Shown: positions 2,365 through 44,079, numbered from the stretch's first letter. The stretch: DNA of 64,000 nt from Patescibacteria group bacterium (GCA_049317985.1 JBMOHF010000001.1:25605-89604), one strand, 5' to 3'. Numbers and translations are program-made. Notes: generated by a model from the sequence alone, not told the origin.

Positions 2365-3471
2365 ATGAAAAACAAAGCATTGCTGTCTGTTTTATTACTA
2401 ACTTCTGTTTTATTTTTTTCAGCCTGTTCCTCTAAAAAGAATGAGGTTAAAAACGCGCAAGAAATAAAAAATAATCCCGTTCAGTCACAGGAAACAGCTA
2501 GCAGCTCTGAAAAGTCAGCGGTAAACAATTATAATCAGACAACAAAAGCATGTAATGTTGGGAAGGTGCTGTTTCGGTATCCGAACGCTTGGGGTGGGTG
2601 CGTCGAGACTAAAAATGGCGTTTCTTTTAGAACTGATGACAGTCCATATCAAGTTGATTTAGTTTTAACTTTGAACGAAACGACGGGTGAAGGGTATAAT
2701 AATAACGAAGAGCATTCTTTTAATAGTAATACCTTAATTAGCGGTAACGGAGCGTTTTTTGAAGAAGCTCAGGGGGGAGCTTTAATGGGTGGCTATATTC
2801 AGATAAATAATAATTATTACCGATATAATTTTAATATTGTAAGTAATCAACCAGCGCTAGAAGAGGGAGATGGTGTTTGGACGCCTAATAATAATGTAAG
2901 CAAAGATAATTTAATATCAATTTTAAGAAGCGCTGAATTAAACTATAAAGTTTTAACCTTAGAGAAATGCGGAAAAGAGGCGACTAAAATTTCCACTCTT
3001 AAAGTTGGTGATTTTTATAAGACTCATAAAATTAAAAAAATATCTGGGAATCTTTTAGAAAAAAATTGCGAAAATTCTTGTTCAGAATTTCCTGATGGCT
3101 TGGGTTTATCAGTTTTATTTGATGGTGAAGAAACTGTTTCTGGCACCTTGTTTTATACTGATTATGTTTTCAGCTTAGCCTTTGTTCCTGATGATAAAAC
3201 ATGGACGCCAGATATATCTATAGAGAGTAACTCTAGCGACTATGTTTTAAACGGCATATCTTGTGGAAATGGATTTTCGATTAAAAATGATCTTAACGAT
3301 TCAGTTGTCACTAAATTGCCGAATATTAAAAACTTTTTAACTAATGCAAAAAACGGCGATAAATACCCCAAAAAAGTCTCAATCACAATTAAGAACTTAA
3401 CCACAACTTTTCTCTCTGGTGGCGAGAGTGGAACAATGGCTGAATTAGTAGATGTTAAAGAAATTGAATAA
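2365..3471 (+). CDS. Hypothetical lipoprotein
   Basis: Signal peptide with lipobox LFFSAC at the N-terminus. N/S-rich mature part with no recognisable family. Confidence 0.6.
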   Translation: MKNKALLSVLLLTSVLFFSACSSKKNEVKNAQEIKNNPVQSQETASSSEKSAVNNYNQTTKACNVGKVLFRYPNAWGGCVETKNGVSFRTDDSPYQVDLVLTLNETTGEGYNNNEEHSFNSNTLISGNGAFFEEAQGGALMGGYIQINNNYYRYNFNIVSNQPALEEGDGVWTPNNNVSKDNLISILRSAELNYKVLTLEKCGKEATKISTLKVGDFYKTHKIKKISGNLLEKNCENSCSEFPDGLGLSVLFDGEETVSGTLFYTDYVFSLAFVPDDKTWTPDISIESNSSDYVLNGISCGNGFSIKNDLNDSVVTKLPNIKNFLTNAKNGDKYPKKVSITIKNLTTTFLSGGESGTMAELVDVKEIE

Positions 3472-4927: not shown

Positions 4928-5872
4928 TTACTTCAAAACCTTCCCCACAAAATCCTTATGTCCAGCTAGAAACTCACCAGCCTTCAAAAACTTTCCTCCT
5001 GCCAACTGTAAGCTTTCAATTTTCAATGCGCCTTTGGTTGTCGCCACCAGCAAACTCTTTTCCTCCAGGAATAATTCACCAGGCACATGTCTCGCTTCCG
5101 AAGTAATTTCCTTGGACACTGTTCCTATTTTTATCATTTTATTATCTTCTGTCAAGGCAAAACTTCCCGGCCAAGGATTAAAGGCGCGAATTTGGCGTTC
5201 TAATTCAAGAGCACTCTTCTGAAAATCCAAATGGCCATCCTCTTTTTTGATGGTGCGTACATAAGTCGCCAGGGCATCATCTTGGATCTGTTCCGGTAAC
5301 TTGTCCTCACAATAATCTTTCAGTGACTGACAGACCACCTGGCCAGCTAGTAGGGACGCTTGGTCGTGAAGCTCGCCAATATTTTCTTGTCCGTTTAAAG
5401 AGATGGCGAATTGTTTCAAAATTGGGCCAGTATCCAAACCGGCCTCCATTTTCATGATAGTCAATCCCGTTTCCTGGTCGCCGTTCAAAATCGCTGCTTG
5501 CAAACAAGCGGCACCACGATATTTTGGGAGGAGAGAAGCGTGAATGTTGATGCAGCCAAATTTCGGAATATCTAAAATATTTTGGGGAATAATTTGGCCA
5601 TAGGCCAAGACGACAATCAAGTCGGGAGCCAATTTTTCTATTTCTGTAAAAATTTCTCTCACCTTTTTTGGTTGAAAAACTGGAATATTATTTTTTTCCG
5701 CACAAACTTTCACTGCTGGTGCACTCAAGGTCTGTGTTCTGCCGATTGGCTTGTCTTCCTGAGTGACAACCGCGGTAACCGAAAAGTCCTCACTTTTTAT
5801 TAGCGCTTCCAGAGTCGGAACGGAAAATTCTGGCGTTCCCATGAAGATGACGGAATATGGGGTATTAGACAT
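4928..5872 (-). CDS. fmt: Methionyl-tRNA formyltransferase
   Basis: N-terminus VIFMGTPEFSVPTLEALI, the core INIHASLLPKYRGAA, and the C-terminal Fmt domain. Confidence 0.9.
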   Translation of the reverse strand: MSNTPYSVIFMGTPEFSVPTLEALIKSEDFSVTAVVTQEDKPIGRTQTLSAPAVKVCAEKNNIPVFQPKKVREIFTEIEKLAPDLIVVLAYGQIIPQNILDIPKFGCINIHASLLPKYRGAACLQAAILNGDQETGLTIMKMEAGLDTGPILKQFAISLNGQENIGELHDQASLLAGQVVCQSLKDYCEDKLPEQIQDDALATYVRTIKKEDGHLDFQKSALELERQIRAFNPWPGSFALTEDNKMIKIGTVSKEITSEARHVPGELFLEEKSLLVATTKGALKIESLQLAGGKFLKAGEFLAGHKDFVGKVLK

Positions 5873-9234: not shown

Positions 9235-10728
9235 TTAGTTGATATTATTGCTGTTAAATTGAATTATCTCCCCCATATCATAGAAATATAAAAGTTGCGG
9301 AGTGACCGTTATGACGTTGTTTTTGCTGTAACCCATTTGAAGAAAAACGCTATCAGATGCGAATGGCCTTTTTTTCCCGTTGGCAATTATATAAATTGTC
9401 GGTGAGCTTGGAGAAGTTAGCAAACTGCCGTTATCAAACAATTCTTGGTCTTTTGTTTTGTAACGCGCTAATTCATTGCTTGTAACCTTAGTTATTTTTC
9501 GATCTTTAAACTTATAGGTCATAATTGCTTTATCAAGAATCGGAAACTTTTCTCCATTTTCCACATAAAATCGCGCACCAGTTTTATTGTCTTGCAAAAT
9601 AGCGCCAGTGGCATAAGTACTGGTCACAGTTATTTCTGTTCCAGTCTGATAATTACTTAATTCATTGGTACTAGCAGGAATTATTTCATCTTTATTGAAG
9701 CCAATTTTCTTGAAAGTTGCAGTGTTAGCAATTAAACGTTTTTCGTTATCCACTAGTAAAAAAATATTGTTGCTCGAATCACTAACTAGAGAATAATTTG
9801 GAAATTTAATATCAGCTCCTTTCTCGAAGTTATCAAGTATTTCGGTACTAGTTTTAACTATTTGGTTTTTATTAAATCGAGAAACAAAGGAGCCCCAATT
9901 TAAAAATTGTCTTTTTTGACCGTTTTCAATTAACCAAATTACCTTGTCTCCTTCTGCCTGAAGGATCGTGCTGTCCGGATAAAAAGTTTTTACTGTGGGA
10001 AAATATTTTTTCCAAAGTTTAAAAAAATTATAATTTCCATTAAATACATGCGGAGTGTAGTTGTAAAGTGCGGCAGTCGCCTTATTCTGTGGAGTAACAC
10101 TCATTGTCGCCGTACTAATTGTGCCATAAGGATTAGTGAAAGTGTAAGTTTGGCCAGCCTTATAGGAATACCGGTATTGCTCATTTATATAAGCAAGAAA
10201 TTGCAGGGAAGCGCTATTGATTTGTTTTCCAAATCCTTTGTAATAAGGATTACAAGCGATGCTATCGGGGCAACCATAACCAGCCGCCCAATCCAAGCTG
10301 CTCTGGCTTGGGTTAGCTTTTTCGATTAAACCTTGTTCTTTTTGAAGAAGAACTAAAATTAATTTCGGGCTGACCGTTGTGATTATTCTACATCTTGCCT
10401 TTTTGTCTGCTTCAGTTGGTGAATCACCAAGATCAATTCCGCTGCAATCATAATTTTGATGAGTGGCATCATAAATAATTTCTGCCGCTGATTTATCGAT
10501 GGTACCGTGGGAATTGATTGTTCGGTAATTGGCTAGGTAGCTATTTTTTTTATTCAAAAAATTTTGAATATCAGTCAGGCCCATACTGTTGTAATCTAGG
10601 AGTTCAGAGTCACTAATAATATTTTCTGGGTTAAATTCCGCGTCAATTTCTATTGCTTTTGCAGTCGGCGAACAAATAAAAAATGCTAATAACGCCAAAA
10701 AAATTGCTGACCGATATTTCTTCAACAT
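9235..10728 (-). CDS. Secreted hypothetical protein with four C-terminal ~55-aa repeats
   Basis: Signal peptide ending PTAKA, and a Cys-containing N-domain (LLQKEQGLI, DWAAGYGCPD). Four repeats have the type x(I/Y)x(L/I)xxNGxKRx(F/I). Confidence 0.6.
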   Translation of the reverse strand: MLKKYRSAIFLALLAFFICSPTAKAIEIDAEFNPENIISDSELLDYNSMGLTDIQNFLNKKNSYLANYRTINSHGTIDKSAAEIIYDATHQNYDCSGIDLGDSPTEADKKARCRIITTVSPKLILVLLQKEQGLIEKANPSQSSLDWAAGYGCPDSIACNPYYKGFGKQINSASLQFLAYINEQYRYSYKAGQTYTFTNPYGTISTATMSVTPQNKATAALYNYTPHVFNGNYNFFKLWKKYFPTVKTFYPDSTILQAEGDKVIWLIENGQKRQFLNWGSFVSRFNKNQIVKTSTEILDNFEKGADIKFPNYSLVSDSSNNIFLLVDNEKRLIANTATFKKIGFNKDEIIPASTNELSNYQTGTEITVTSTYATGAILQDNKTGARFYVENGEKFPILDKAIMTYKFKDRKITKVTSNELARYKTKDQELFDNGSLLTSPSSPTIYIIANGKKRPFASDSVFLQMGYSKNNVITVTPQLLYFYDMGEIIQFNSNNIN

Positions 10729-10834: not shown

Positions 10835-13468
10835 TTAGATCTTTTTCATTACGACTTCGTTTTTCAGCCCAAGGTCAATGCTAATTTTGTCACCTTCTTG
10901 AATTTTTCCTTCGATTATTTCCATTGCTAATTCATCAAGAATCATGGTTTGGATGAGACGTTTCAGAGGTCTTGCACCAAAGGTTGGATCGTAGCCTTTC
11001 TCCGCTAATTGTTTTTTTACTTTTTGGCCAAGCTTGAGGACAATATTTTTATTTTTTAGACGTTTTTCAACTTTAATCAGTTCAAGTTCAACAATCTTTC
11101 CTAGAGATTCTTTGCTCAAATTTTTGAAAACAACAATTTCATCAATCCGATTCAAAAATTCTAATTTAAAATTGTCTCTAAGAATTTTGTCGATTTTTTC
11201 TTTCATTTCATCACCTTTTTCTTTTTCTTGATTTTTTTGGTCGCGATCACCGAAGCCAATCGAATATTGGCGAATCACTTCATTGCCTAGATTGGAGGTC
11301 ATAATTATTACCGTGTTTTTGAAGCTAACCGTTCTTCCTTTTGAATCAGTAAGTCGGCCATCATCGAGGATTTGCAGAAGCATATTAAACATTTCTGGAT
11401 GAGCCTTCTCGATTTCATCAAACAAAATAACACTATATGGTTTTCTTCGAATTTTTTCAGTTAACTGTCCGCCTTCTTCGTGTCCGACGTAACCTGGTGG
11501 GGAACCAATTAATTTCGCCACGCTGTGTTTTTCCATGAATTCACTCATATCTAAGCGGATTAAGGAATTTTCGTCATTGAATATGAAACGCGCCAGAGCT
11601 TTAGCGAGCTCGGTTTTTCCAACACCAGTTGGGCCAACAAACAAAAAAGAGCCGATTGGTTTTTTTTCTTCGTTAATACCAGCCCGACTACGTCGAACAG
11701 CATTTGAGACAGCGGTGATTGCTTCATCTTGCCCGATTACTTCTTTTTTTAATTCCTCTTCAGTGTGCACTAATTTTTGCAAATCACTTTGAAGCATTTT
11801 TTGAACAGGGATACCAGTCCATCTCGCAACAACTTTAGCGATGTCTTCTTCATCCACTTCTTCTTTGAGAATGCGTTGTCCGTTTTTTTGTATTTTAATG
11901 AGATCTTCTTGAAATTTATGGATCGCCGCTTCTTTTTCTGGGATGATCCCGTATTTTATTTTTGCTACTTCAGTCAGGTCTTCACCGCGACGTTCGATAA
12001 TTTCTGCCTTTGCTTTTAGTTCATCAATCTCTTTTTTATTAATTCTAATTTTATCAATAATATTTTTTTCATTTTGCCAATGAAGCTCTAGTTGCGAACT
12101 TTTTTCTTTTAATTCGCTGATATTTTTATTGATGCCGCGCAATTTTGCTGATTTTGGTTCAGTGCTAATCAGTCCGGCACGAGTAATCTCTAGTCTTTTT
12201 ATCTCTCTTTTTAGACGGTCTAACTCTTCGGGCATTGAATCAATTTCCATGCGCAGGGCAGAGGTTGCTTCGTCGATCAAGTCAACGGCTTTGTCTGGCA
12301 GAAATCTGTCGGCAATATACCGGCTGGACAATTTGACGGCTGCGATTAAGGCATTGTCCGTAATTCTCACGCCGTGATGAACTTCGTATTTTTCTTTAAT
12401 TCCTCTAAGAATAGCGATTGCATCCTCGAGACTAGGTTCATTAACCATGATCGGTTGGAATCTTCTTTCCAGGGCGGCATCTCGTTCAATATATTTTTGA
12501 TACTCTTTAGTGGTGGTTGCACCAATAGTTCTTAATTCGCCGCGTGCTAAAACTGGTTTTAACATATTGCTGGCATCAATCGAACCCTCGCTAGCACCAG
12601 CGCCAATAATTGTATGAAGTTCATCGATAAATAGAATAATTTGGCCATTACTTTGGACCTCTTTCAAAACTGCTTTTAATCGATCTTCAAATTCACCGCG
12701 AAATTTTGCACCTGCAACCAGGGCTCCGAGGTCGAGGGTTAACACCTGTTTATTTTTTAAATTTTCTGGGACATCACCCGAAACTATTCTTTGCGCTAAG
12801 CCTTCAACGATTGCCGTTTTTCCGGTTCCTGGCTCGCCGATTAGGACGGGATTATTTTTAGTACGACGAAGCAGAACCTGCATGATTCTTCTTATTTCCT
12901 CGTCACGTCCAATTACGGGGTCAAGTTTTTCTTGTTTGGCAAGTTCAGTTAAGTTGGTTGTAAACTTTTCTAAGACCCGGTATTTATTTTCTGGGTCAGG
13001 ATCAGAAATGGTTTGGTTTCCGCGCAGTTCTTTAATAATCGGGGAAACACTTTCATAGGAAACTTTGAAATTTGATAAAACTGCCTGAGCCTGATTTTCG
13101 ACGCCAATCAAAGCAAGAAGAATATGCTCAGTCGAAATAAATTCATCATTCATTAAGTCAGCTTCTTTTTTTGCTCGCTCCAAAACAACTGCCGTCTCGC
13201 CATTTCCTTGAACGGTATTAACTTGCCCGTTTAGATTGGATTTAGTTTCTATCCTCGGTAATTTTTTTATTTCATTCTCGGTGTAGTCGGCGACTTCTTC
13301 GGGATTAATTCGGAGTTTTTCCAGAATTGTCTTCACCAAGCTTTCCTCCTGGTCAAGAAGAGCGAGCAAAAGATGTAGAGATTCAATATGCGGTTGGCCG
13401 TTCTCGTTGGCAATCACTTGAGCGCTAATAATTGCTTCCTGTGACTTGGTTGTAAATTTATTAAACAT
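10835..13468 (-). CDS. clpB: ClpB-type Hsp100 chaperone (full-length M-domain) carrying a ClpC-like IGF tripeptide loop
   Basis: D1 has GEPGTGKT and ILFIDELH. The ~125-aa coiled-coil M-domain aligns to the ClpB middle domain. D2 has GPTGVGKTE and [10 protein letters not shown]. The loop reads [20 protein letters not shown]. Confidence 0.9.
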
Positions 13469-13592: not shown

Positions 13593-13958
13593 ATGACTAA
13601 TAAAAATCCTTTCCTTGCTTTTGTCTCTGCCGCTCTCGAAGTCGGCTTTGTGGTAATTTATTTCCCTTTTTGGTGGTATTCCGTTGGTTTTATTCGTTTT
13701 TTACGTTCGCTTGGTCGGTTTCTAAAAGAAAAACAAGAGAGTCTTGCTTTATTTGTTTGGATAAAAAATATTTTTCGGCCAATGTATGGTCAAGAAGATT
13801 TCGCTGGTCGCTTGATCAGTTTCTTTATGAGAGTAATTCAGATTATTTTTAGAGGCATTGCTTTGATTTTTTTTCTTGCCCTAACAATAACTTTGGCTCT
13901 CGGTTGGCTCGCTTTGTTGCCCCTCGTTCTCGTTTTTATTGTTTTGCAATTACTCTAA
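13593..13958 (+). CDS. Small polytopic membrane protein (3-4 helices)
   Basis: 121 aa and very hydrophobic. Its stop lies 3 nt before the start of the Clp-like gene, so it is probably co-transcribed. Confidence 0.6.
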   Translation: MTNKNPFLAFVSAALEVGFVVIYFPFWWYSVGFIRFLRSLGRFLKEKQESLALFVWIKNIFRPMYGQEDFAGRLISFFMRVIQIIFRGIALIFFLALTITLALGWLALLPLVLVFIVLQLL

Positions 13959-13961
13959 TTT

Positions 13962-16637
13962 ATGAATAATCAAGAAAATAATCAAGAAACTGAAGAAAAT
14001 TGGTTTGGTGGTCGGCCGCTCGTTTTTCGTTGTGTGCCACAATTAGGGCTAATTGCTGTGAAGCGCTTAAAAAACTCGCTTCTTTCTTTTATCGATATTA
14101 TTTTTTGGTTAATTTTTGTTTCCGGTTTTTTTGCTCTTGCTCTTTGGGTCTATCAAGAGGGGGCGCCTTTTGTTGAAAAGCCTGAAAGTATTATCTTTTT
14201 TTGGAAAGAACAGCATCCTTTACTGTTATGTTTTTCTTTCGCTTTAATGGCGGGGTTATTTATTATTTATCGAAACAGTGAGAAAAAAGCTTCTCGCAAG
14301 AAAATTAATTACAACTGGTTCAAGAAAGAATTACCACGCGAAGATCTTTTGGCGCCGTTTTTTAATGGCAACCCAAAGGATTTAGAATCAAGTAAGGGGT
14401 TTAGCGATGAAAGCATGTCATGCCTTGATGACGCTTATCTTTTAGTAAGAAAATTAAAACAAGCAGAAATTCGCCCAATTCACTTATTTCGAGTTTTATT
14501 AAAAAAGAAAAAAATTCAGGCAATTTTTGTGCGCTTAAATATTAACGCCAAGGATCTTCTGCAAAAAATCGATCGACATGCAATGGAAGGAGAAGCGGTT
14601 TCTGGAAAAATTATTATTTCTCCCGCACTTTTGATTGCTTTGACTTCGGCTTTTCAAAACGCTGCTCTTGGTCATCGTGTCGCCGTGGAAATTTTAGATT
14701 TTGTGGCGCTGTTGCCTGAGAATGATCCAGTATTGTCAGAAATTTTATTTGATTTAGAAGTTCCGAAAGAAAAATTAGAGAATACGGTTGCTTGGTTTCA
14801 GATTAATGATCGTTTACGAGAAAATTATCTTCGCTTTCGCACCTTGGCTCGTTTCAAGCCAGATAGTGGTATGAACCGATCATATACGGCAATTGCGACA
14901 CCAACTTTAAATAATTTTTCTCACGATTTAACGCAAGCTGCCAAGTTTGGTTATTTGGAAATGTGTGTGGCGCGTGAAGAAGAATTTTCTCAGATTTTTG
15001 AAAATATTGGTGGCGGCCGAAATGGTGTTCTGTTGGTGGGACAGCCAGGAGTGGGAAAAAAAATGATGCTCGAAGGGCTAGCTCAATTAATGGTTCAAGA
15101 AGAAGTCCCAGATTTTTTACGAGATAAGCGCTTGGTTGAGCTTGATATTTCTCGCTTGACTGCCGGTGCTTCAGCGGCGGAAGCTGAAGAGCGATTGCTA
15201 AGTTGCATATACGAAGCAGCTTCTTCTGGAAATATTATTTTAGCAATCCAAAATATTGAAAATATTATCAGTCAAAATACTGGAGAACAGGGTGGCTTGG
15301 ATTTATCAGGAGTTTTAGCCGAAGCTCTTTCTCGTGGGCAAACAATTTGTCTGGCGACGATTAGTTCGGAAAATTATCAAGATCGCCTTGAGGGGAAAAC
15401 CTTGGATCAAGCCATGGTTAAAATAAAAATTAACGAACCAGATGAGAACCGGGCTATTTTGATTTTAGAGAGTAAGGTTGCTTTTTTGGAGCAAAAATAT
15501 CATATCTATTTTCTTTATGAGGCGATCGAAGAAGCGGTCTTAATGTCCACAAAATATCAACACGATTCTTTCTTGCCAGCCAAAGCCATTAATCTTTTGC
15601 AAGACGCAGCAGTTATTTCTGCTAAAAATCTTCGGCGCGGGTCTTCTTCTTTTTGTGGCCAGGAGGAAGTGGCGGCAGCAATCAGTGCTTTGACGGGCGT
15701 GCCGGCTAGCAAAGTTACCGAAAGCGAAGGCGAGAAGTTATTAAATTTAGAAGCAGAAATTCACCATCGCTTGATTGGGCAGGAGGAAGCTGTCTCAATG
15801 GTCGCCAATAGTTTAAGGAGGGCTCGCTTGGAGCTCAAAGATCATAACCGACCAATGGCGAGCTTCTTGTTTCTTGGTCCGACCGGTGTTGGTAAAACAG
15901 AATTAGCAAAAGCAGTATCTGAAGTTTATTTTGGTGGCGAAGAATTTATGATTCGCTTAGATATGAGTGAATATCAGCATCCAGACAGTGTAAACAAAAT
16001 GATTGGCGACGAAAACGGCGGGGTTGGTTATCTAACTGAAGCAGTTCGCAAAAAACCTTTTTCTCTTGTTCTTTTTGATGAAGTGGAAAAAGCTCATCCA
16101 GATATTTTAAATCTCTTCTTGCAGTTGATGGACGATGGTCGATTAACAGACGGACAGGGGCGTACCATTAATTTTAAAGATTCAATCGTCATCGCTACTT
16201 CTAACATTGGCGCACTATATATTCAGGAGCAACTCAGAGCGCAAACCCCGATCGAGGATATCAAAAACGGTCTTATTAATGGGCAGTTAAATCAATACAT
16301 GCGGCCGGAGCTAGTCAACCGTTTTGATGGTATTATTGTGTTTAAGCCACTTAATGAGGATAATCTTTTTCAGATCTCGAAATTGTTATTAGGGAAGATC
16401 AAGAATCAGCTAATGGAAAAGGGAATTGGTTTTAGTGTTGATAAAAGTGGTGCGCTTAAGTTAGCAAAAGATGGTTATGATCCAAAATTTGGGGCGCGAC
16501 CTCTTCGGCGTCTATTACAGGAGAGGATTGAAGATCGAATTGCTTCATTGATTTTATCAAATAATTTGAAGCGCCGCGACACTGTAGTGGTTAATGAAGA
16601 TGGAGAGATAAGCGTTGAAAAGGGGAGAAGTCTTTAA
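13962..16637 (+). CDS. Membrane-anchored ClpA/ClpC-like AAA+ ATPase with degenerate D1 Walker B
   Basis: Two N-terminal hydrophobic helices are followed by Clp_N-like repeats. D1 has Walker A GQPGVGKK, but the Walker B position reads ILAIQNIE instead of hhhhDE. D2 is intact ([20 protein letters not shown]). No M-domain and no IGF/LGF loop are seen. Confidence 0.8.
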   Translation: MNNQENNQETEENWFGGRPLVFRCVPQLGLIAVKRLKNSLLSFIDIIFWLIFVSGFFALALWVYQEGAPFVEKPESIIFFWKEQHPLLLCFSFALMAGLFIIYRNSEKKASRKKINYNWFKKELPREDLLAPFFNGNPKDLESSKGFSDESMSCLDDAYLLVRKLKQAEIRPIHLFRVLLKKKKIQAIFVRLNINAKDLLQKIDRHAMEGEAVSGKIIISPALLIALTSAFQNAALGHRVAVEILDFVALLPENDPVLSEILFDLEVPKEKLENTVAWFQINDRLRENYLRFRTLARFKPDSGMNRSYTAIATPTLNNFSHDLTQAAKFGYLEMCVAREEEFSQIFENIGGGRNGVLLVGQPGVGKKMMLEGLAQLMVQEEVPDFLRDKRLVELDISRLTAGASAAEAEERLLSCIYEAASSGNIILAIQNIENIISQNTGEQGGLDLSGVLAEALSRGQTICLATISSENYQDRLEGKTLDQAMVKIKINEPDENRAILILESKVAFLEQKYHIYFLYEAIEEAVLMSTKYQHDSFLPAKAINLLQDAAVISAKNLRRGSSSFCGQEEVAAAISALTGVPASKVTESEGEKLLNLEAEIHHRLIGQEEAVSMVANSLRRARLELKDHNRPMASFLFLGPTGVGKTELAKAVSEVYFGGEEFMIRLDMSEYQHPDSVNKMIGDENGGVGYLTEAVRKKPFSLVLFDEVEKAHPDILNLFLQLMDDGRLTDGQGRTINFKDSIVIATSNIGALYIQEQLRAQTPIEDIKNGLINGQLNQYMRPELVNRFDGIIVFKPLNEDNLFQISKLLLGKIKNQLMEKGIGFSVDKSGALKLAKDGYDPKFGARPLRRLLQERIEDRIASLILSNNLKRRDTVVVNEDGEISVEKGRSL

Positions 16638-16640
16638 AAA

Positions 16641-16670
16641 AACAAAAAAAGCCCCGAATCTTCAGGGCTT
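16641..16670 (-). terminator. Rho-independent terminator of 16684-17046
   Basis: Stem AAGCCC/GGGCTT. The minus-strand transcript is followed by a long U-run. Confidence 0.65.
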
Positions 16671-16683
16671 TATCCTTGTTAAA

Positions 16684-17046
16684 CTACAAGGTTATTTTTT
16701 TCTTTTTCTTTTTTTGTGAATTCTTTTCTTTTTGTCTTTTTTCAAGAATTTTTAAAATTTCCCCCAACTCTTTTTCTTCCTCTTCTAGGCCGCTGGTGAT
16801 TACTTTCTGTATTTCTTCTTGGTGTTGTTGAGCAGACAAGTTGTCTAGTTGTAATTTGTTAGCATTTAATCTTTTTAAACTTTCCCCTTTTTCTAAATAT
16901 CGGTTTTTAATAAAAGGAATTAAATTTCCGATATCTTGCGGTGTTAGTAATGTTAAAACCGCTTCACCGAGGAAATTTTGTTGGTACGAGCTGATTAGAA
17001 TGCCTAGATGCTTTTCCTTCTTTATTGTTTCTTGTTTTTTTGCCAT
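16684..17046 (-). CDS. Hypothetical protein with poly-lysine C-terminus
   Basis: 120-aa ORF ending in NSQKKKKKKITL. No family recognised. Confidence 0.45.
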   Translation of the reverse strand: MAKKQETIKKEKHLGILISSYQQNFLGEAVLTLLTPQDIGNLIPFIKNRYLEKGESLKRLNANKLQLDNLSAQQHQEEIQKVITSGLEEEEKELGEILKILEKRQKEKNSQKKKKKKITL

Positions 17047-17122
17047 CTTCGCCTTTTTTGTTTTATTTGTAATTATTGGTATTATTAAATAGCTTGTCTA
17101 ATTGTACATATATTATCTAAAG

Positions 17123-19483
17123 ATGTCAACTGTAACCTATCTAATATTTTTTATTCTCGCCTTTGCTTTAAGCGCCGTCTCGGTGCCTGTTTTGCGTTTT
17201 TTGGCGTTTCGTTACGGTATTCTTGACTCTCCCGGTGAAAGAAAAATTCACCATCAATCGATGCCTTTGATGGGTGGGGTGGCGATATTTTTTAGTTTTT
17301 TTCTGGTCTTATTTCTCAGTCGTTCTCATCTTTTCCCGAGCGCTCTTTCAGCGCATCATTGGTTGGGATTCTTTTTTGGGGCATTTTTTTTGATAATCGG
17401 CGGTGTTTTAGATGATAAGTATAATCTTAAGCCAAAATGGCAGATTATTTTTCCGTTGTTGGCAGTAGCCGCAGTCTTACTCGGCGGCATCGAAATTCCG
17501 AAAATTAGTAATCCCTTCGGAGGACTAGTGTATTTAAATTGGGGTCTACTTTCTGGCACCTTAATCACCTTTTGGTTATTAGGAATGATGTATACCACCA
17601 AGCTGTTAGATGGCGTAGACGGGCTTGTTTCTGGTCTTGGCTTAATCGGTTCTTTGATAATTTTTTTGTTTACCATCACTACCCGCTATTATCAGCCTGA
17701 CATCGCTTGGGCTGCTTGGATTTTTGCGGGGGCAGTAGCCGGTTTCCTCGTATTTAATTGGCATCCCGCTTCCATTTTCTTGGGAGAAGGAGGTTCATTA
17801 TTTGTCGGTTATGTTTTGGGAGTCTTAGCAATTATTTCTGGCGGAAAGATTGCGATTGCCTTGTTAATTATGGGCGTGCCAATCCTTGATGTTGCTTGGA
17901 CAATTATTCGTCGCTTAGCCAAAAAGAAAAACCCTTTTCGATTTGCCGACAAAAACCATCTCCACCACCGTCTTCTTGCCGCTGGACTTAATCAAAAACA
18001 AACCGTTTTAATTTTCTATTTATTATCTTTTTGTTTTGGTATTAGTGGCTTATTTTTGCAAAGCCGCGGGAAAACCATTGCTTTGATTCTGGTTTTTTTG
18101 TTGATGTTGTTGTTGGTTGCTCTCTTATCCCGTTTAAAAAAAGCCAAGCCAAAACTACTTTTGCATGTTTGTTGTGCACCTTGTGCCGCTTACATTACGC
18201 ACGCAAAACTAATGAGTCGCTTTAATGTTTCTTGGTATTTTTATAATTCTAATATTTACTCTCGGGAAGAATATCAAAAACGATTAGCTTCAGTCAAAGC
18301 TTTTTGTCGAAAATATGGGATAAAGTTAATCACTGAAGCTTATGACCACCAAGGGTTCTTGTCGTCAATTATTGGACGAGAAAGTGACCTAGAACGAGGG
18401 GGTCGTTGTTTAATCTGTTACCTCGATCGTTTAAAAAAGACCGCAGAGTTAGCTTCCCATAAAAAATATCACTATTTTTCCACCAGTTTACTAACCAGCC
18501 CCTACAAGAGGACCGCTGAAATATCTGAAATGTGTTTTGATTTAGCGAAGCAATTTAATATAAAGTATCTTGATGAAGATTTTCAGATTGATAATGGATA
18601 TCGACTATCTCAAGAGTTTGCAAAGAAAGAAGGCTACTATCGGCAGAAATTTTGTGGCTGTGAATTTTCAAAAAAAAGTTCAGTGGTTGTCGCTTTGGTA
18701 TTTGCGGTTTTAATTAGTTTTATTCATTCTGCAAAAGTAAGTGCGGCCGACGAATCTTTTCTTCAAGAAAGTTCTTCTAGTTCAGAAGCAGTATTAGTTC
18801 AAAATACTGTTTTAGATTCCGATAATGATGGACTAAGTGACCAAGACGAAATTAAGTACTTAAGTGATGAAAATAATTCCGACACCGATAGTGATGGCTA
18901 TCTGGATGGCGTCGAAATAAAAAATAATTATTCGCCTTTATTTGCTAATAAGAAATTATCGCAGGTTGATTCCGACAAGGATGGTTTAAGCGATTATTTG
19001 GAGATAGCTTTTAAGACGAATCTCGGAAAAAGCGATACCGATGGCGATGGCATTTCTGACTTCAAAGAGATCGACTCTGGTTTTGATCCGTTATCTCCCG
19101 TAAAAGATCAAAGATTACCTCTGCGTGTAGAAATTACCCTTAAAACTCAAAGATTATCTTTTTTGGTAGGTGGTATTAAATGGAAAGAATTTGTGGTTTC
19201 AAGTGGAAAGGCGAGCACGCCAACGCCAAAAGGGAAATTTAAAATTACCAATAAATCAGTAAAGGCTTGGTCAAAATCTTTTGGTCTCTGGATGCCTTAT
19301 TGGATGGGCTTGGGTGATGGGAAAGTTGGACTTCACGAATTACCAGTCTGGCCAAATGGTTACCGAGAGGGGCTTAATCATCTTGGAACGCCAGTCTCGC
19401 ATGGTTGTGTGCGTCTAGGTCTTAATGATGCCAAATATCTTTATGAACGCTTATCAGTTGGGACTGATGTGCTAATTAAATAA
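17123..19483 (+). CDS. Four-module fusion: MraY/WecA-like polyprenyl-phosphate sugar-1-P transferase, QueH (DUF208), TM helix with TSP3 repeats, and YkuD L,D-transpeptidase
   Basis: GT4 motifs VLDDKYNL, LLDGVDGL, FLGEGGS, VPILDVAWTIIRR and NHLHHRL. QueH pattern LLLHVCCAPC, GGRCLICY, TSLLTSPYK and YRQKFCGCEFS. Four DxDxDGxxDxxE repeats. YkuD motif GTPVSHGCVRL. The ATG at 17123 is preferred to the TTG at 17102. Confidence 0.8.
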   Translation: MSTVTYLIFFILAFALSAVSVPVLRFLAFRYGILDSPGERKIHHQSMPLMGGVAIFFSFFLVLFLSRSHLFPSALSAHHWLGFFFGAFFLIIGGVLDDKYNLKPKWQIIFPLLAVAAVLLGGIEIPKISNPFGGLVYLNWGLLSGTLITFWLLGMMYTTKLLDGVDGLVSGLGLIGSLIIFLFTITTRYYQPDIAWAAWIFAGAVAGFLVFNWHPASIFLGEGGSLFVGYVLGVLAIISGGKIAIALLIMGVPILDVAWTIIRRLAKKKNPFRFADKNHLHHRLLAAGLNQKQTVLIFYLLSFCFGISGLFLQSRGKTIALILVFLLMLLLVALLSRLKKAKPKLLLHVCCAPCAAYITHAKLMSRFNVSWYFYNSNIYSREEYQKRLASVKAFCRKYGIKLITEAYDHQGFLSSIIGRESDLERGGRCLICYLDRLKKTAELASHKKYHYFSTSLLTSPYKRTAEISEMCFDLAKQFNIKYLDEDFQIDNGYRLSQEFAKKEGYYRQKFCGCEFSKKSSVVVALVFAVLISFIHSAKVSAADESFLQESSSSSEAVLVQNTVLDSDNDGLSDQDEIKYLSDENNSDTDSDGYLDGVEIKNNYSPLFANKKLSQVDSDKDGLSDYLEIAFKTNLGKSDTDGDGISDFKEIDSGFDPLSPVKDQRLPLRVEITLKTQRLSFLVGGIKWKEFVVSSGKASTPTPKGKFKITNKSVKAWSKSFGLWMPYWMGLGDGKVGLHELPVWPNGYREGLNHLGTPVSHGCVRLGLNDAKYLYERLSVGTDVLIK

Positions 19484-19493
19484 ATTTTTTAAT

Positions 19494-20255
19494 ATGTTTT
19501 ATCTTCGTTTAAGTGTCTTACTCTTACCAATCTTAACCTTGGTTTGTTCTCAGTTTTTAATATTTTTTCCAAATATTTTTTTTCTAGTCTTAATTCTAAT
19601 TCCTGGCATGATTGCTTTTTGGTGTTTTTCCTTATTAAAAAAGAAAAAAACTAATATCAACCAGTGGTGGAAATATTCATTATTACCAGTAATTTTTCAT
19701 CTTTCTTCAATCTTGTATTTTTCGATTACCCCAAACCTTTTTGTTGGTCAGCTAGTTTTATTGTTTAATACTTGGTTTCAGTTTAATTATTTAAAAAACA
19801 TTTATTATTTATTAGCAAGCTCGGAAATCAAAGAGGAGCAACTAAAAAATATTTCTTTTTTTGGTGGGGTTGCTGTGATATTTTTTTCAGCAAGCGCTGC
19901 CTATGGTCTTAGAGTTTTCCTTGGTTATCCCATAATTCCTATTCTCTTGGGGCTCTTGGTTTTCTTGTCCGCAGCATGGTATCAGATTTTTATTTTTTCC
20001 AATCTTTCTATTAAAAAAAATCTAGATTTTTTTCTTATCGCCTTATTGATTCTTTCACAATTTGCCACCGTCCTTTTTTTCTTGCCTTTTAATTACCAAT
20101 TATTAGGGATGATTATGACAATAACTTTTTATTTTGTTGTCGGCGTTGGGCGTTTTTATTTACAAGGTGAGATTCCCGAGAAGCGTCTTCGTTATTATTT
20201 ATTGTTTTCAACTCTTGCAGTATTTCTTTTAGTTTTGACGGCTCGCTGGTTATAG
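19494..20255 (+). CDS. Hypothetical polytopic membrane protein
   Basis: 253 aa with about 7-8 hydrophobic helices. It starts 10 nt after the fusion gene. Confidence 0.6.
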   Translation: MFYLRLSVLLLPILTLVCSQFLIFFPNIFFLVLILIPGMIAFWCFSLLKKKKTNINQWWKYSLLPVIFHLSSILYFSITPNLFVGQLVLLFNTWFQFNYLKNIYYLLASSEIKEEQLKNISFFGGVAVIFFSASAAYGLRVFLGYPIIPILLGLLVFLSAAWYQIFIFSNLSIKKNLDFFLIALLILSQFATVLFFLPFNYQLLGMIMTITFYFVVGVGRFYLQGEIPEKRLRYYLLFSTLAVFLLVLTARWL

Positions 20256-20310
20256 TTTTTTGATTCCAATTTTCATGGTACAATTGTTTTAGTTGTTATA
20301 ATATAATTAT

Positions 20311-21558
20311 ATGAATAAAGATAAAAAAAATATTAGTAAAAAAGATAAAATTAACCTGCAACAAAAATTAGTTAGTGAGGAAAAATATCCAGCTTTCAGC
20401 TCTTCCTTTGTGACGATTATTTCTTCCGCATTAATTTCTCTTGTCGTTGGATCGATTGGTTGTCTCTTAGTTGTGCCGTATTTTATTAATCCCCAGTCTG
20501 GTTCAGATGTGCAGATTTCAGATTATAATTGGGGTGGGAATGGTTTAGTGATTCGCGATCCAAAAACGGTGGTTGTTAATCAGGATCTGAAAGTTGAAGA
20601 AAGCCTCAACTCCATCTCCAAGAGTATGATTAAATTTTATCCAAATCTCCAAGCTTCTTCCTCAGATTCTTTAATTAAAAAAATCGATGAAAAGAAGTAC
20701 TATTTACTAAAGGAACCATTTTCAGCGGGTTTGATTATGTCTGTTGATGGTTGGGTCTTGGCTCTGTGGCCAGCCAAACAAACAGAGGTGGATCTCAAAA
20801 AAATAATTAACAATTTCGAAGGTCTCAGTTCTGAAGGAAAAACATATCGTATTGATAAAGCTACTCTCGTTGAAAAAATACTTGATGAAAAATTGCCTTC
20901 AAACGTCACACCAGTTCTTATTCATTTATCTTCCGCTAGTAATTTACCAGTAAGGAGTTTAGCAAAACCGGCTGATTTAAAAGTTGGTCAGTCTCTATTT
21001 TCTTATAATGGTGCTCGGGGTGTTAATTTTGGTTTTTTAATTGGCCGCGAAAAGACCGAGTTGCTTCGATCTAGTGAGGACTCGTCGGAAGAGTTGAGTG
21101 TAAATTTTGAATTGACGCCAGTATCTGGATCTAGTTTCATTTTTAATCTCGCGGGAGATCTATTGGCTTGGCAAAATTCGAACGGAAAAGTTTTTCCGGT
21201 TTATGCCTTAAATGCGAGATTAAACTCCTTGTTTAAGTTGGGACGTTTTTCTACACCATTATTTGGTGTTAATTATTATAATTTATCAGATTTAAAAATA
21301 CCTGGGTTCAATCAAGATAAAGGAGCTCTTCTTTATTCTTCTGGGAAAAGCATGGCTGTCAATCTAGGTAGTCCTGCAGAGAAAGCAGGACTAAAAAATG
21401 GCGATTTAATTCTCGAGGTGAATGGAGAAGTGATCAACGGTAATAATGATCTTGGCGCAATTATTCAAAATTACCTTCCTGGGCAAGATTTATTGATTTC
21501 CTATTCTCGCTCAGGAGTAAATCTGGAAACTTCTTTACGTTTGGGTGAGCTAAAATAA
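20311..21558 (+). CDS. HtrA-like membrane-anchored PDZ protein, catalytic triad not evident
   Basis: N-terminal TM helix and C-terminal PDZ (GSPAEKAGLKNGDLILEVNGEVI). The trypsin-fold region aligns loosely, but the His and Asp motifs are absent (DGWVLALWPA, PVLIHL) and GNSGGP reads SGSSF. Confidence 0.55.
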   Translation: MNKDKKNISKKDKINLQQKLVSEEKYPAFSSSFVTIISSALISLVVGSIGCLLVVPYFINPQSGSDVQISDYNWGGNGLVIRDPKTVVVNQDLKVEESLNSISKSMIKFYPNLQASSSDSLIKKIDEKKYYLLKEPFSAGLIMSVDGWVLALWPAKQTEVDLKKIINNFEGLSSEGKTYRIDKATLVEKILDEKLPSNVTPVLIHLSSASNLPVRSLAKPADLKVGQSLFSYNGARGVNFGFLIGREKTELLRSSEDSSEELSVNFELTPVSGSSFIFNLAGDLLAWQNSNGKVFPVYALNARLNSLFKLGRFSTPLFGVNYYNLSDLKIPGFNQDKGALLYSSGKSMAVNLGSPAEKAGLKNGDLILEVNGEVINGNNDLGAIIQNYLPGQDLLISYSRSGVNLETSLRLGELK

Positions 21559-32367: not shown

Positions 32368-33474
32368 ATGCTGAGGCAAAAAATGTTATTTAACAATAAA
32401 ATAAACGAAAAAAAACATAAGATCATGAAAAAGAAAAATAGTTTGCTGTGGATAAAGTTTTTTGTCATCAGCGCTTTCAGTATTGCAATAATTGCGCTTA
32501 TTCTTTCAATATTTTTGAAAGGGTATATGCCGATTATTTGGTTAGCGAGCGGAGCATTTTACATCCTCCTTAGTGCCGGTGTTTATTATCGAACTTGGCA
32601 ATTTTGGAGAAATAAAAAAAAGGCTGGGTTTGTAAGTGGGTATGTTGCCCTCTTAGAGTATGTCGGAAATTATAATGGAGATTTGAGAAACTCATTAGAA
32701 GAAGATACGGACGGAGTCATTTATCCTGGTCCTCACTGTTTCTTTAATCTATTCCAAACCTTTGAAGTTCATCAAGAAAAAGGAGAGGATATGTACTATT
32801 CTTTAGAACTAGACTATGTCGACCTGTTTCAGGGGGAGGCGGATTATGTAGAATTTAAAGGTGGGCAAGAAGTAAAGTTTCTGAATGCCAGTCTCCGATT
32901 TAGAATCGTAGATCCACGTAAGGTGGCGTATAAAATTGAAGATTACACCAAATATCTCATTGGTGAATCTGAAGACGCTATTACGTTGTACTGTAAAACT
33001 ATTGAATTTGAAAAAACGGCCGAAACTGATTTTCCGGTAAAAGTGATGAATTTAATGGATAAGGATCAAATCAAAGCTGATTATGGTTTAGAACTTGTAA
33101 ATTTTTCTTTTTCTCGTTTTCAATTTTCTGCAAAAACCAGAGAGATGGAAGATTTAAAAGAGAAGGCTGAATACGAGATTAAAGTAGAAGATGATGCTTT
33201 TAAAAAAGCAGAAAAAGAGCAAAAAAGAGTGATCGTTGAAGCCGCAACGCAAATTATCAGAAATGGTCCAGAATTGGATAGACTTGAAAAGTTAAAGGAA
33301 AGCTGGCTAACACCAGAAATTTTATTAGCGAATGAAGATTCGCAAAGAAAGTGGACAGCAATCGGTAAAAATCAAAATGTTACCGTTATCCTTGATGATA
33401 GCAATAATAGTCTAACGTCTCTTGGTGCTAAATTTGGTATTGGGACGGAGGCTGCAAAAAAAGAAAAGAAATAA
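32368..33474 (+). CDS. SPFH/band-7-like membrane protein (tentative)
   Basis: Two N-terminal TM helices. The segment PGPHCFF...ASLRFRIVDPRKVAYKIEDY resembles the SPFH core, and the C-terminus is coiled-coil. The start is uncertain (an alternative MKKKNSLLW lies 19 codons in). Confidence 0.4.
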   Translation: MLRQKMLFNNKINEKKHKIMKKKNSLLWIKFFVISAFSIAIIALILSIFLKGYMPIIWLASGAFYILLSAGVYYRTWQFWRNKKKAGFVSGYVALLEYVGNYNGDLRNSLEEDTDGVIYPGPHCFFNLFQTFEVHQEKGEDMYYSLELDYVDLFQGEADYVEFKGGQEVKFLNASLRFRIVDPRKVAYKIEDYTKYLIGESEDAITLYCKTIEFEKTAETDFPVKVMNLMDKDQIKADYGLELVNFSFSRFQFSAKTREMEDLKEKAEYEIKVEDDAFKKAEKEQKRVIVEAATQIIRNGPELDRLEKLKESWLTPEILLANEDSQRKWTAIGKNQNVTVILDDSNNSLTSLGAKFGIGTEAAKKEKK

Positions 33475-42894: not shown

Positions 42895-43179
42895 AGAAAA
42901 ATGAAAATTATGCAGATAGCATTTGCTAAGGTGATTATACCACAAAACATGTGCTATTAGGTGACACTCTTTTTATTGGTAAATTTGCGGTAGTATTAGA
43001 AAAGTATTTTTAATCAATCAAGCAATTATTTAGATTCATTATTGTGACCAGTTTATCAAAAGAGTGCCCTTGTCTTTCTGGTTTCTTTGTGTTTAAATAT
43101 AGTGTCCTCGCCCTCAATTTATTACTTGGTCGAGAAACCTGGCTCCGGGAAGGGCAGATTCTTTAAAAAATTTAACAAA

Positions 43180-44079
43180 ATGGAAAATAACCAAAGAACA
43201 CTAAACAATGGGGAACTAGAAAAACTAATCGCCAAACTTGGCGGGATAGCTCAAGTCAGAAAAGTCTTAGAAAATAAGCTGACTGTAAAAATCAAGGATC
43301 TGGTTCTGTTAGATGAAAATGGTTGCTTCTTACCCCAAGAAGGTTCAATTTCAAAAGGGTATGAGCAAGACTACTTGGATATGCAACCGCTTGTGGATTG
43401 TGAAATCCAGCTTAAGCGTTTAACGAGATCTTTTCCTAACTTAGAATTTCCAAGCATTAGCGAGTTTAGGGATCAGAGCCATAAGTTGCTAATTCAATTA
43501 CGTGAAAATTCAGCCTACGCGGGATTGCTAAAGGGTTTCTATATGCTAGTCTGCTATCCAAAATTAAAAATAAACTTTGATTTTCAATCAGGCTGTGACC
43601 CAGAAGCAATAGATTATGGTACAGTTATTCAGGACATGCTCTTCCCGGTCGTCAAAAAAACCTATCAAAAAGTCACCGGGCAAGGTTTTATGGATTCAGG
43701 AAATATTAAAGGAGTTACCACTGTTATTGATGATAGCCATCGGCGAATTTTTTCTCGAATGTTTTCCGGCCCGCTAGTCGGAATACAATTTTACCCATTC
43801 AGAGGTATCCCATTTTTTGAAGCTCAGAGCATTGTTCGTCAGCTTGAAGATGCTTTTGCGCTTTCTAGTCCTCTCGGCCTGATGATGGCACTCATCTCAG
43901 CACCCAGGACTCTCCTTAAAAGTAATGTTATATTTAGAACTGGAGCGGCCGTTTCAACGTCTCAGTCTCGCTACACAATGTGTGTCTATGTTGACCACAC
44001 GGGATATTTACATTACGTTAAATCTGACATCAATAGTTTCGATGCCAGAGATTGTATCGGTTTAACCTATATTGGCTAA
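43180..44079 (+). CDS. Hypothetical protein (orphan, ~300 aa)
   Basis: Long ORF with no recognisable motif. The first ATG is at 43180, and the track's upstream alternative start at 43087 is not excluded. Confidence 0.5.
   Translation: MENNQRTLNNGELEKLIAKLGGIAQVRKVLENKLTVKIKDLVLLDENGCFLPQEGSISKGYEQDYLDMQPLVDCEIQLKRLTRSFPNLEFPSISEFRDQSHKLLIQLRENSAYAGLLKGFYMLVCYPKLKINFDFQSGCDPEAIDYGTVIQDMLFPVVKKTYQKVTGQGFMDSGNIKGVTTVIDDSHRRIFSRMFSGPLVGIQFYPFRGIPFFEAQSIVRQLEDAFALSSPLGLMMALISAPRTLLKSNVIFRTGAAVSTSQSRYTMCVYVDHTGYLHYVKSDINSFDARDCIGLTYIG

Follow-up and report, generated by a model that had tools for sequence, protein, structure and literature searches.

A transferase, QueH and an L,D-transpeptidase in one open reading frame of Patescibacteria: a probable case of operon compaction

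Introduction

Why are a membrane-embedded transferase of envelope glycan synthesis, a cytoplasmic tRNA-modification enzyme and an extracytoplasmic L,D-transpeptidase encoded in a single open reading frame (ORF)? The question is raised by positions 17123–19483 (+ strand) of a 64,000-nucleotide stretch of DNA from a Patescibacteria group bacterium (GCA_049317985.1, JBMOHF010000001.1:25605–89604), the whole of which is called the window here. The product joins a Glycos_transf_4 (GT4) transferase, a QueH (DUF208) module, TSP3 repeats and a YkuD domain. A first-pass annotation of the window had read this chain as an integrated inside-to-outside envelope machine with a recruited Fe-S module, and not as an accidental read-through. 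Neither view is supported by comparison with syntenic relatives, in which the modules are separate genes and from which the fusion emerges as a read-through-type concatenation of consecutive genes. The ORF probably consists of three consecutive, independent enzymes of a conserved operon that were concatenated by operon compaction; the modules would work side by side and not as a single mechanism, and the outer part is probably released. The lineage with the fusion is Falkowbacteria-type Patescibacteria. On this account, the locus is a clean stepwise case of the collapse of compact Patescibacteria operons, from separate genes through a two-module to a three-module ORF, and it cautions against treating such fusions as Rosetta-stone proof of shared function.

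The fused gene and its reality

A frame scan identifies 17123–19483 as a single stop-free ORF of 786 amino acids (aa) plus a stop codon, starting with ATG; an in-frame TTG at 17102 is an alternative but less likely start. The modules follow each other in the order GT4 with 11 transmembrane (TM) helices, canonical QueH, a 12th hydrophobic helix (TM12), four TSP3 repeats and YkuD. Four Pfam families, Glycos_transf_4, QueH, TSP3_bac and YkuD, were detected, each above its curated cut-off. The five parts that the first-pass annotation had distinguished in one uninterrupted frame were thus recovered, together with every motif quoted for them at its position. The product of the ATG start is identical to database protein P0001, encoded on a 108-kb contig and named 'MAG: epoxyqueuosine reductase QueH [Patescibacteria group bacterium]' (MAG, metagenome-assembled genome) by NCBI. 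The name covers just one of the three enzymes. The architecture is already present in public databases under this one-enzyme name, and no description of a GT4-QueH or VanZ-QueH fusion, or of QueH in Patescibacteria, was found in the searchable literature.

The fused ORF is a genuine gene and not an artefact, because it is identical in an independent assembly and because about 15 protein clusters share its architecture. The Logan assembly of run SRR30676220 matches window positions 16123–20483 with 0 mismatches in 4361 nucleotides (nt; 100% identity). Clusters P0002–P0015, which come from other samples and are 52–79% identical to P0001, have the same four-module architecture; seven of them are 71–79% and seven 52–55% identical, and the junction nucleotides differ. 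The triple fusion is also continuous in three GTDB representative genomes (L010, L019 and L027). The earlier expectation of a real gene is therefore borne out, and the gene is recurrent.

A structure of the fused chain was predicted with AlphaFold2 (AF2) on the basis of 41 homologues, with a mean predicted local distance difference test score (pLDDT) of 76 and a predicted template modelling score (pTM) of 0.41, and was compared to the PDB using Foldseek. QueH and YkuD are folded confidently in the model, and these modules and the transferase all match solved folds.

Transferase module

The GT4 module occupies 17123–18133 and is recognized by Pfam and NCBIfam profiles, hydropathy, AF2 and Foldseek. 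The Glycos_transf_4 profile (PF00953) matches aa 80–239 with 99.9 bits against a cut-off of 27. By its sequence, the module is a polyprenyl-phosphate N-acetylhexosamine-1-phosphate transferase (PNPT), WecA-like by best score, but not assignable as WecA or MraY. Neither label can be used because the scores fall under both equivalog cut-offs: 116 bits against 326 for the WecA model (TIGR02380) and 79.5 bits against 192 for the MraY model (TIGR00445). The catalytic motifs are VLDDKYNL (DD; 17405–17428), LLDGVDGL (DxxD; 17603–17626) and NHLHHRL (HLHH of the last cytoplasmic loop; 17954–17974). Residues D97, D98, D163, D166, H279 and H281 are invariant across the 41 homologues, and the motifs are likewise invariant in alignments A2 and A4. 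The predicted fold matches those of MraY and DPAGT1 with a Foldseek probability of 1.0.

An arrangement of 11 helices with the C-terminus in the cytoplasm is that of WecA; MraY, by contrast, crosses the membrane 10 times, and both its ends lie outside. For the module in the window, 11 TM helices are indicated alike by hydropathy, charge distribution and AF2, so that the earlier description of an MraY/WecA-like enzyme with about 10 helices was correct as to the transferase type but not as to the helix number or the equal standing of the two names. The catalytic DD, DxxD and HLHH motifs share one membrane face with Lys/Arg-rich loops. With Escherichia coli WecA and Bacillus subtilis TagO the module has in common the Glycos_transf_4 domain, the DD and DxxD motifs for Mg and phosphate, and the H-L-H-H motif in the last loop; with WecA specifically it shares the 11 TM helices, the cytoplasmic C-terminus and the best NCBIfam match. 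It differs from WecA and MraY in scoring far below the equivalog cut-offs and in carrying a C-terminal QueH, and we know of no characterised PNPT that carries one.

The first-pass annotation had seen no linker before QueH. A linker of seven residues, LKKAKPK (18134–18154), which is evident from hydropathy, charge and alignment and whose codons contain a run of seven A, does separate the two modules. In two-module relatives of alignment A2 it is up to about 20 residues long. Because this Lys/Arg-rich linker comes after TM11, QueH is placed in the cytoplasm. The predicted topology has the N-terminus outside, 11 TM helices, QueH inside, TM12, and the TSP3 repeats and YkuD outside. The self-consistent arrangement proposed earlier, with QueH inside and the transpeptidase outside, agrees with hydropathy, charge and AF2.

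QueH module and its family

The QueH module (18155–18676) is full-length according to Pfam, phmmer and predicted fold. The Pfam profile PF02677 aligns to aa 345–518 over positions 1–174 of 175, with 179 bits and an E-value of 1e-52. The sequence motifs are LLLHVCCAPC (18155–18184, with CCxxC itself at 18170–18184), GGRCLICY (18398–18421), TSLLTSPYK (18482–18508) and YRQKFCGCEFS (18638–18670), which contain C350, C351, C354, C429, C432, C511 and C513. The six metal-ligand positions of the family (CCxx[C/D], CxxC and CxC) and the conserved E, R, N and K are all present.

Thermotoga maritima QueH (TmQueH; 7lc5, 7lc7 and 9deu) is a cobalamin-independent epoxyqueuosine reductase. The module in the window has the same full-length fold and the same Cys and E, R, N and K positions: phmmer finds 7lc5 with an E-value of 2e-19, and the predicted model, with a pLDDT of about 90, superimposes on it with a TM-score of 0.86 (normalised to the target) and a root-mean-square deviation of 2.1 Å. 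However, the two sequences are only 28–29% identical; the window module sits between TM11 and TM12, whereas enzymes of the TmQueH type are soluble proteins of about 190 aa; and the window has Cys where TmQueH has Asp13. The role of Asp13 was judged from PDB entry titles, which name D13N and C9S mutants, together with family statistics. The statistics were taken from the best 150 of 1825 representatives retrieved at E ≤ 1e-10 when only the QueH module served as the query of an exhaustive HMMER search. The sequence is CCAPC in 134 of the 150 and CCAPD in 11; since Cys is the family majority, its presence in place of Asp13 is not a divergence. Six alignment columns do not vary at all and another 23 reach at least 90% conservation; the window protein retains 28 of these 29, with G471C as the sole exception.

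Among the same 150 representatives, QueH is fused to VanZ, RNase HII, CCA-adding enzyme, uracil-DNA glycosylase (UDG), methyltransferases, MiaA, CoaE, Amidase_3 and others. QueH is a promiscuous fusion partner, common as such in metagenomic lineages and those with small genomes, and several of its partners act on tRNA. Of the 150, 17 are VanZ-QueH and one is QueH-TM-Amidase_3; a TM segment is present in 22 (~15%), including the latter. The VanZ-QueH representatives are 44–47% identical to the query and in rank directly follow the representative of the fusion itself and a truncated GT4-QueH fragment. GT4-QueH is restricted to one clade, accounts for only two full-length entries among the best 150 (clustered at 50% identity), and is the only QueH fusion seen here that is extended by a third gene. 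An obligate association of VanZ-QueH with GT4 was considered and ruled out, since VanZ-QueH occurs away from GT4 in L094. Named fusions in metagenomes (P0246, P0168, P0140, P0155 and P0122 to P0136) comprise MiaA-QueH, RNase HII-QueH, QueH-UDG, QueH-TM-Amidase_3 and a large VanZ-QueH group; the gene for the QueH-TM-Amidase_3 protein P0155 (L008, 6001–7878) adjoins those for a diacylglycerol kinase and a two-component system.

TM12, TSP3 repeats and YkuD

The region between QueH and the repeats resembles the start of an exported protein. TM12 (18677–18745; aa 519–541), delimited by comparison to separate YkuD genes and by AF2, has a KK n-region, a 14-residue hydrophobic h-region VVVALVFAVLISFI and a c-region HSAKVSA. 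The segment reads KKSSVVVALVFAVLISFIHSAKVSA and continues with ADES. The separate YkuD genes of L001, L003 and L006 open with a typical signal peptide; one stand-alone YkuD protein begins with MLNKIAVGLILFLLFRAAPSLA followed by AAP, a textbook Sec signal peptide. Because syntenic YkuD genes start in this way, TM12 is, by sequence comparison, what was once the Sec signal peptide of a separate YkuD gene downstream and now crosses the membrane within the chain. The charged n-region, the h-region within the 10–16 residues of Sec signals and the small residues at -3 and -1 are those expected of a signal peptidase I substrate, with a predicted site at VSA-AD, after A541 and between nt 18745 and 18746. 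All 15 fused proteins have a positive n-region and an h-region of 12–16 residues, although the helix sequences have diverged. All 15 also keep the small-x-small motif, which is present in the separate genes too, in variants such as VSA-A, VFA-A, VRA-E, ARA-E, AQA-Q, ISA-Q and others. The AF2 helix in this region covers residues 520–533 only. A short h-region combined with a conserved small-x-small motif is the geometry of a signal peptide and not of an anchor, which suggests probable cleavage by signal peptidase I after A541, with release of a mature TSP3-YkuD protein.

Downstream of TM12 there is a Ser-rich extracytoplasmic linker (18746–18814), which is disordered in the model (pLDDT <50 for residues 534–564). 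It is followed by four exact DxDxDGxxDxxE repeats of the Ca-binding TSP3 type (18815–19069), found by regular expression and by the Pfam profile TSP3_bac (PF18884; 38.7 bits). The YkuD catalytic domain (19124–19477) matches PF03734 over aa 668–785 with 68.6 bits against a cut-off of 23.4, and contains the His motif GLHELP (19328–19345) and SHGCVRL (19397–19417). The predicted fold of the C-terminal module matches the YkuD and Ldt structures 1y7m, 4jmn and 5bmq. In common with B. subtilis YkuD and mycobacterial Ldt, the module has the YkuD fold, the H...SHGC(V/I)R signature and an extracytoplasmic location, which is predicted from its position after an in-to-out helix derived from a signal peptide. 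Unlike these enzymes, it lacks LysM and PG_binding domains, in the place of which it has four TSP3 repeats, and it has no gene of its own but forms the end of a polytopic precursor. It is 55–63% identical to the stand-alone YkuD proteins of relatives.

Relatives with separate genes

A search of 5.8 billion proteins gave 644 matches to the fused protein. All the best 120 of these contain GT4 and QueH, whereas the TSP3-YkuD tail is present in only 15 clusters among them (P0001–P0015). A scan of species-representative genomes provided 80 GT4 loci, which were classified locally and checked with Pfam. GT4, QueH and YkuD form one ORF in three (L010, L019 and L027). GT4-QueH is fused without YkuD in 16 loci, in 11 of which a separate downstream YkuD gene was detected. 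GT4 and QueH are adjacent separate genes in L013, L034, L035 and L049, where QueH has its own ATG 0–20 nt past the GT4 stop codon. In L039, L043, L046 and L062, genes for GT4, VanZ (118–122 aa) and QueH (183–191 aa) abut each other, and L047 has GT4, a small TSP3 protein and a fused VanZ-QueH. GT4 stands alone in the remaining 52 of the 80 retrieved loci, often with rplU next to it and with no QueH found within 4 kb. Both the same fusion and its split counterparts, which the first-pass annotation had proposed to look for, thus occur at syntenic loci.

Among syntenic loci with QueH, the commonest form is GT4-QueH with a separate YkuD gene, and an arrangement in which all three genes are separate also occurs. 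In L001, L003 (complete genome CP066698.1), L006 and L007, a GT4-QueH protein of 519–535 aa is followed by a separate TSP3+YkuD gene for 195–229 aa, which overlaps the GT4-QueH stop or abuts it 0–3 nt downstream. Synteny with the window extends over the entire locus, in the order LigB, a 494–497-aa protein, ClpB, a small protein of ~121 aa, a Clp-like protein of ~890 aa, GT4-QueH and, further downstream, a DUF5656-like protein, a PDZ protein, phosphoglycerate kinase, enolase and phosphoglycerate mutase. Because the genes for the small and Clp-like proteins precede GT4 in 51 of 93 stretches (the loci then in the set plus the window), the GT4 genes are positional orthologues; the triad of small, Clp-like and GT4 genes defines this orthology across Patescibacteria. 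In the triad (window 13593–17046 for the upstream part; L010–L091), the Clp-like proteins have ~890–920 aa, and those of relatives start with a CxxC...CxxC zinc ribbon and TM helices.

In a tree of GT4 domains, GT4-only genes are basal and the VanZ/QueH arrangement occupies a middle clade. The derived clade contains 29 loci, of which 24 are fused, four are split and one lacks QueH, with the splits nested among the fusions. Triple fusions appear at three positions (window with L010; L019 with L027; L005), which match three types of junction. The triple fusion therefore arose at least three times. Because fusion and fission are frequent at both joints, the covalent link is not essential. Clusters P0006–P0008 retain the old initiator Met at the junction (CGCEFS-MKK...). 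Both junctions in the window lie in A-runs of Lys codons, seven A at 18135–18141 and eight at about 18669–18676. In the split relative L001 (about 9550–9566), the QueH gene ends in TAA and the YkuD ATG follows three nt on in the same frame, so that a single substitution in the stop codon would create the fusion, a plausible reason for its recurrence.

Two further observations concern surveys of this kind. In L029 (about 5005–5105), a masked stretch of N bridges GT4 and rplU and gives the appearance of a 477-aa fusion of GT4 with ribosomal protein L21; the fusion was rejected as an artefact and represents a trap for automated architecture surveys. In addition, the Patescibacteria-type syntenic locus occurs in MAG records labelled 'uncultured Gammaproteobacteria bacterium' (many), 'Planctomycetota' (one) and 'Bacillota' (one), including L010, L011, L013, L015, L017, L023 and others; the labels look wrong.

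Origin of the fusion and alternative explanations

The arrangements suggest a succession of events. A QueH gene, at first together with VanZ, would have settled downstream of the gene for a transferase that initiates a lipid-linked glycan of the envelope at the cytoplasmic side of the membrane. QueH would next have become fused to the cytoplasmic C-terminus of the transferase, and loss of the QueH stop codon, independently in several sublineages, would have joined the YkuD gene. The signal peptide of YkuD would thereby have turned into TM12, with the in-to-out orientation that is required. Concatenation was possible because the topologies are compatible: a cytoplasmic C-terminus is followed by a cytoplasmic enzyme and an in-to-out signal peptide. 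Cleavage by signal peptidase I would yield the same mature TSP3-YkuD as in split genomes, and QueH, tethered to the membrane by the seven-residue linker, would keep the tRNA job of its family. The data show the anatomy of the ORF, the logic of its topology, its recurrence and synteny, the split and fused arrangements and the conserved catalytic residues; from these we infer the independence of the modules, tRNA as the substrate of QueH and cleavage at VSA-A. The cytochrome b/c1 polyprotein FbcH of Bradyrhizobium japonicum is reportedly processed at an internal signal peptide. FbcH resembles the window protein in that a polytopic membrane protein continues into an internal helix like a signal peptide and then into an exported domain, so that a single gene gives two products that have genes of their own in other organisms; however, the parts of FbcH are subunits of one complex, and cleavage in the window is only predicted.

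Several observations weigh against three merely concatenated enzymes. QueH is fused to GT4 or abuts it in 28 of the 29 loci of the derived clade, the GT4-QueH link is common to hundreds of clusters at 90% identity, and by classic Rosetta-stone logic a link of such stability indicates functional coupling. QueH has been tethered to membranes repeatedly, in the VanZ-QueH and QueH-TM-Amidase_3 proteins and the other TM-bearing representatives, and neither tgt nor queA was found in the window or in the flanks of any fused locus. The proposed processing would require signal peptidase to act on an internal signal that follows a folded Fe-S domain, as predicted from sequence features. The inter-domain geometry of the AF2 model is unreliable at this pTM, and a conserved interface between GT4 and QueH may exist. 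It is possible on these grounds, together with the tight TM11-QueH linker and the two-module architecture of all the best matches, that a QueH-like Fe-S module was recruited to envelope biogenesis in a true inside-to-outside machine, for which QueH might be a redox or iron sensor or a regulator of the transferase, or else a membrane reductase of a lipid-linked or imported substrate. We regard this as improbable: 52 of the 80 loci have a positional GT4 orthologue with no QueH close by, natural split genes are nested among the fusions, QueH has a canonical fold with nearly all its conserved positions, its family fuses promiscuously with cytoplasmic enzymes, including tRNA- and DNA-related ones, and VanZ-QueH exists away from GT4. 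To our knowledge, no chemistry joins epoxide reduction to the initiation of polyprenyl-phosphate glycans. It is similarly improbable that retention of QueH at the membrane is functional in itself, either as an Fe-S switch that couples redox or iron status to glycan initiation or as a reductase of an imported queuosine precursor. If functional tethering were true, the QueH family would have a second role, not on tRNA or coupled to the membrane.

The enzymes might also be independent and the chain uncut, so that TM12 is a stable anchor that holds YkuD beside the transferase and couples glycan initiation and cross-linking in space. The repeated origin of triple fusions and their persistence down to 52–57% identity indicate that the link is at least tolerated, and a tethered YkuD could reach the wall by means of the disordered Ser-rich linker of roughly 25 residues together with the TSP3 spacer. 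Nevertheless, this is unlikely, since the hydrophobic core of 12–16 residues has the length of a signal peptide, the -3/-1 small-residue site conserved in all fused proteins would be purposeless in an uncleaved anchor, and most relatives export free YkuD. The chance that an indel in one of the A-runs or a chimeric contig has falsely joined the genes is negligible. Both junctions do lie at such runs, and a stop codon is present at exactly this point in close relatives, but the two independent assemblies are identical, 14 further clusters from other samples have the same ORF with different junction nucleotides, and the three GTDB representatives share the fusion, so that an artefact is essentially refuted. 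Concatenation of independent enzymes raises the questions of whether a membrane-tethered tRNA-modifying Fe-S enzyme is active and whether signal peptidase processes such fused precursors.

Queuosine pathway context

The most likely substrate of the fused QueH, judging from its conserved residues, is tRNA, with epoxyqueuosine converted to queuosine via a [4Fe-4S] centre. We take PF08331 to be the N-terminal domain of QueG, in which case QueH and QueG would be alternative enzymes for the same function. A phyletic anticorrelation exists between PF02677 and the DUF1730 family PF08331 (PMC6822775), and in small-genome DPANN archaea QueA, QueH and Tgt have been kept together as a co-localised module (PMC8204110). 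Neither the window nor the flanks of any fused locus yielded a tgt, a queA or a second queH; the QueA query was an approximate E. coli sequence. The tgt gene is common in Patescibacteria. It lies directly upstream of the block of small, Clp-like and GT4 genes in the GT4-only genomes L054, L067, L079 and L091, the last of which is a named Falkowbacteria genome; the matches in L054, L067 and L079 were confirmed with genuine Patescibacteria Tgt sequences.

Surrounding locus

Upstream of the fused gene, on the same strand, are its conserved partners, the genes for a 121-aa small membrane protein (13593–13958) and an 891-aa membrane-anchored Clp-like AAA+ ATPase (13962–16637). Downstream, 19494–21558 (+) encodes two conserved neighbours, a 253-aa polytopic membrane protein with a weak DUF5656 match and a 415-aa PDZ protein. 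The latter is HtrA-like in its C-terminal part, which aligns to DegP-type proteases over the end of the protease domain and one PDZ domain; profile searches of Pfam and NCBIfam detected no protease family in it. The first-pass annotation had seen an envelope-assembly locus. YkuD, polytopic membrane and PDZ genes are indeed conserved neighbours, but the same conserved block contains two Clp ATPases, phosphoglycerate kinase, enolase and phosphoglycerate mutase. Because the block continues into these glycolytic genes, the locus is a conserved housekeeping stretch and not a dedicated envelope island.

In some relatives, a gene for 750–775 aa lies between YkuD and the DUF5656-like gene (L003, 10353–12611; L006, 10371–12695; L005, 10296–12596). 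It has a Pfam Beta_propel match in L003, L004, L006 and L007, with none on record in L005. In the window, the gap between YkuD and the DUF5656-like gene is only 10 nt (19483–19494), so that the gene is missing in this lineage.

The two Clp/Hsp100-type ATPase genes form a divergent pair: a canonical ClpB-like protein of 877 aa is encoded at 10835–13468 (-), and its 891-aa membrane-anchored paralogue at 13962–16637 (+) has weaker Clp_N and first-AAA signals. Between the Clp-like and fusion genes, the antisense strand contains a 120-aa Lys/Glu-rich ORF with a KKKKKKITL tail (16684–17046, -). The Logan annotation (L093) lists this ORF as a gene, and it has no family match; at the corresponding place in L003 there is a minus-strand ORF of 60 aa. 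Elsewhere in the window, six ORFs of 330–497 aa are without a Pfam match at E ≤ 1e-4 (2365–3471, 9235–10728 (-), 32368–33474, 43087–44079, 56986–58170 and 61556–62683); the one of 497 aa belongs to the conserved genes of the syntenic block (L001, L003 and L006).

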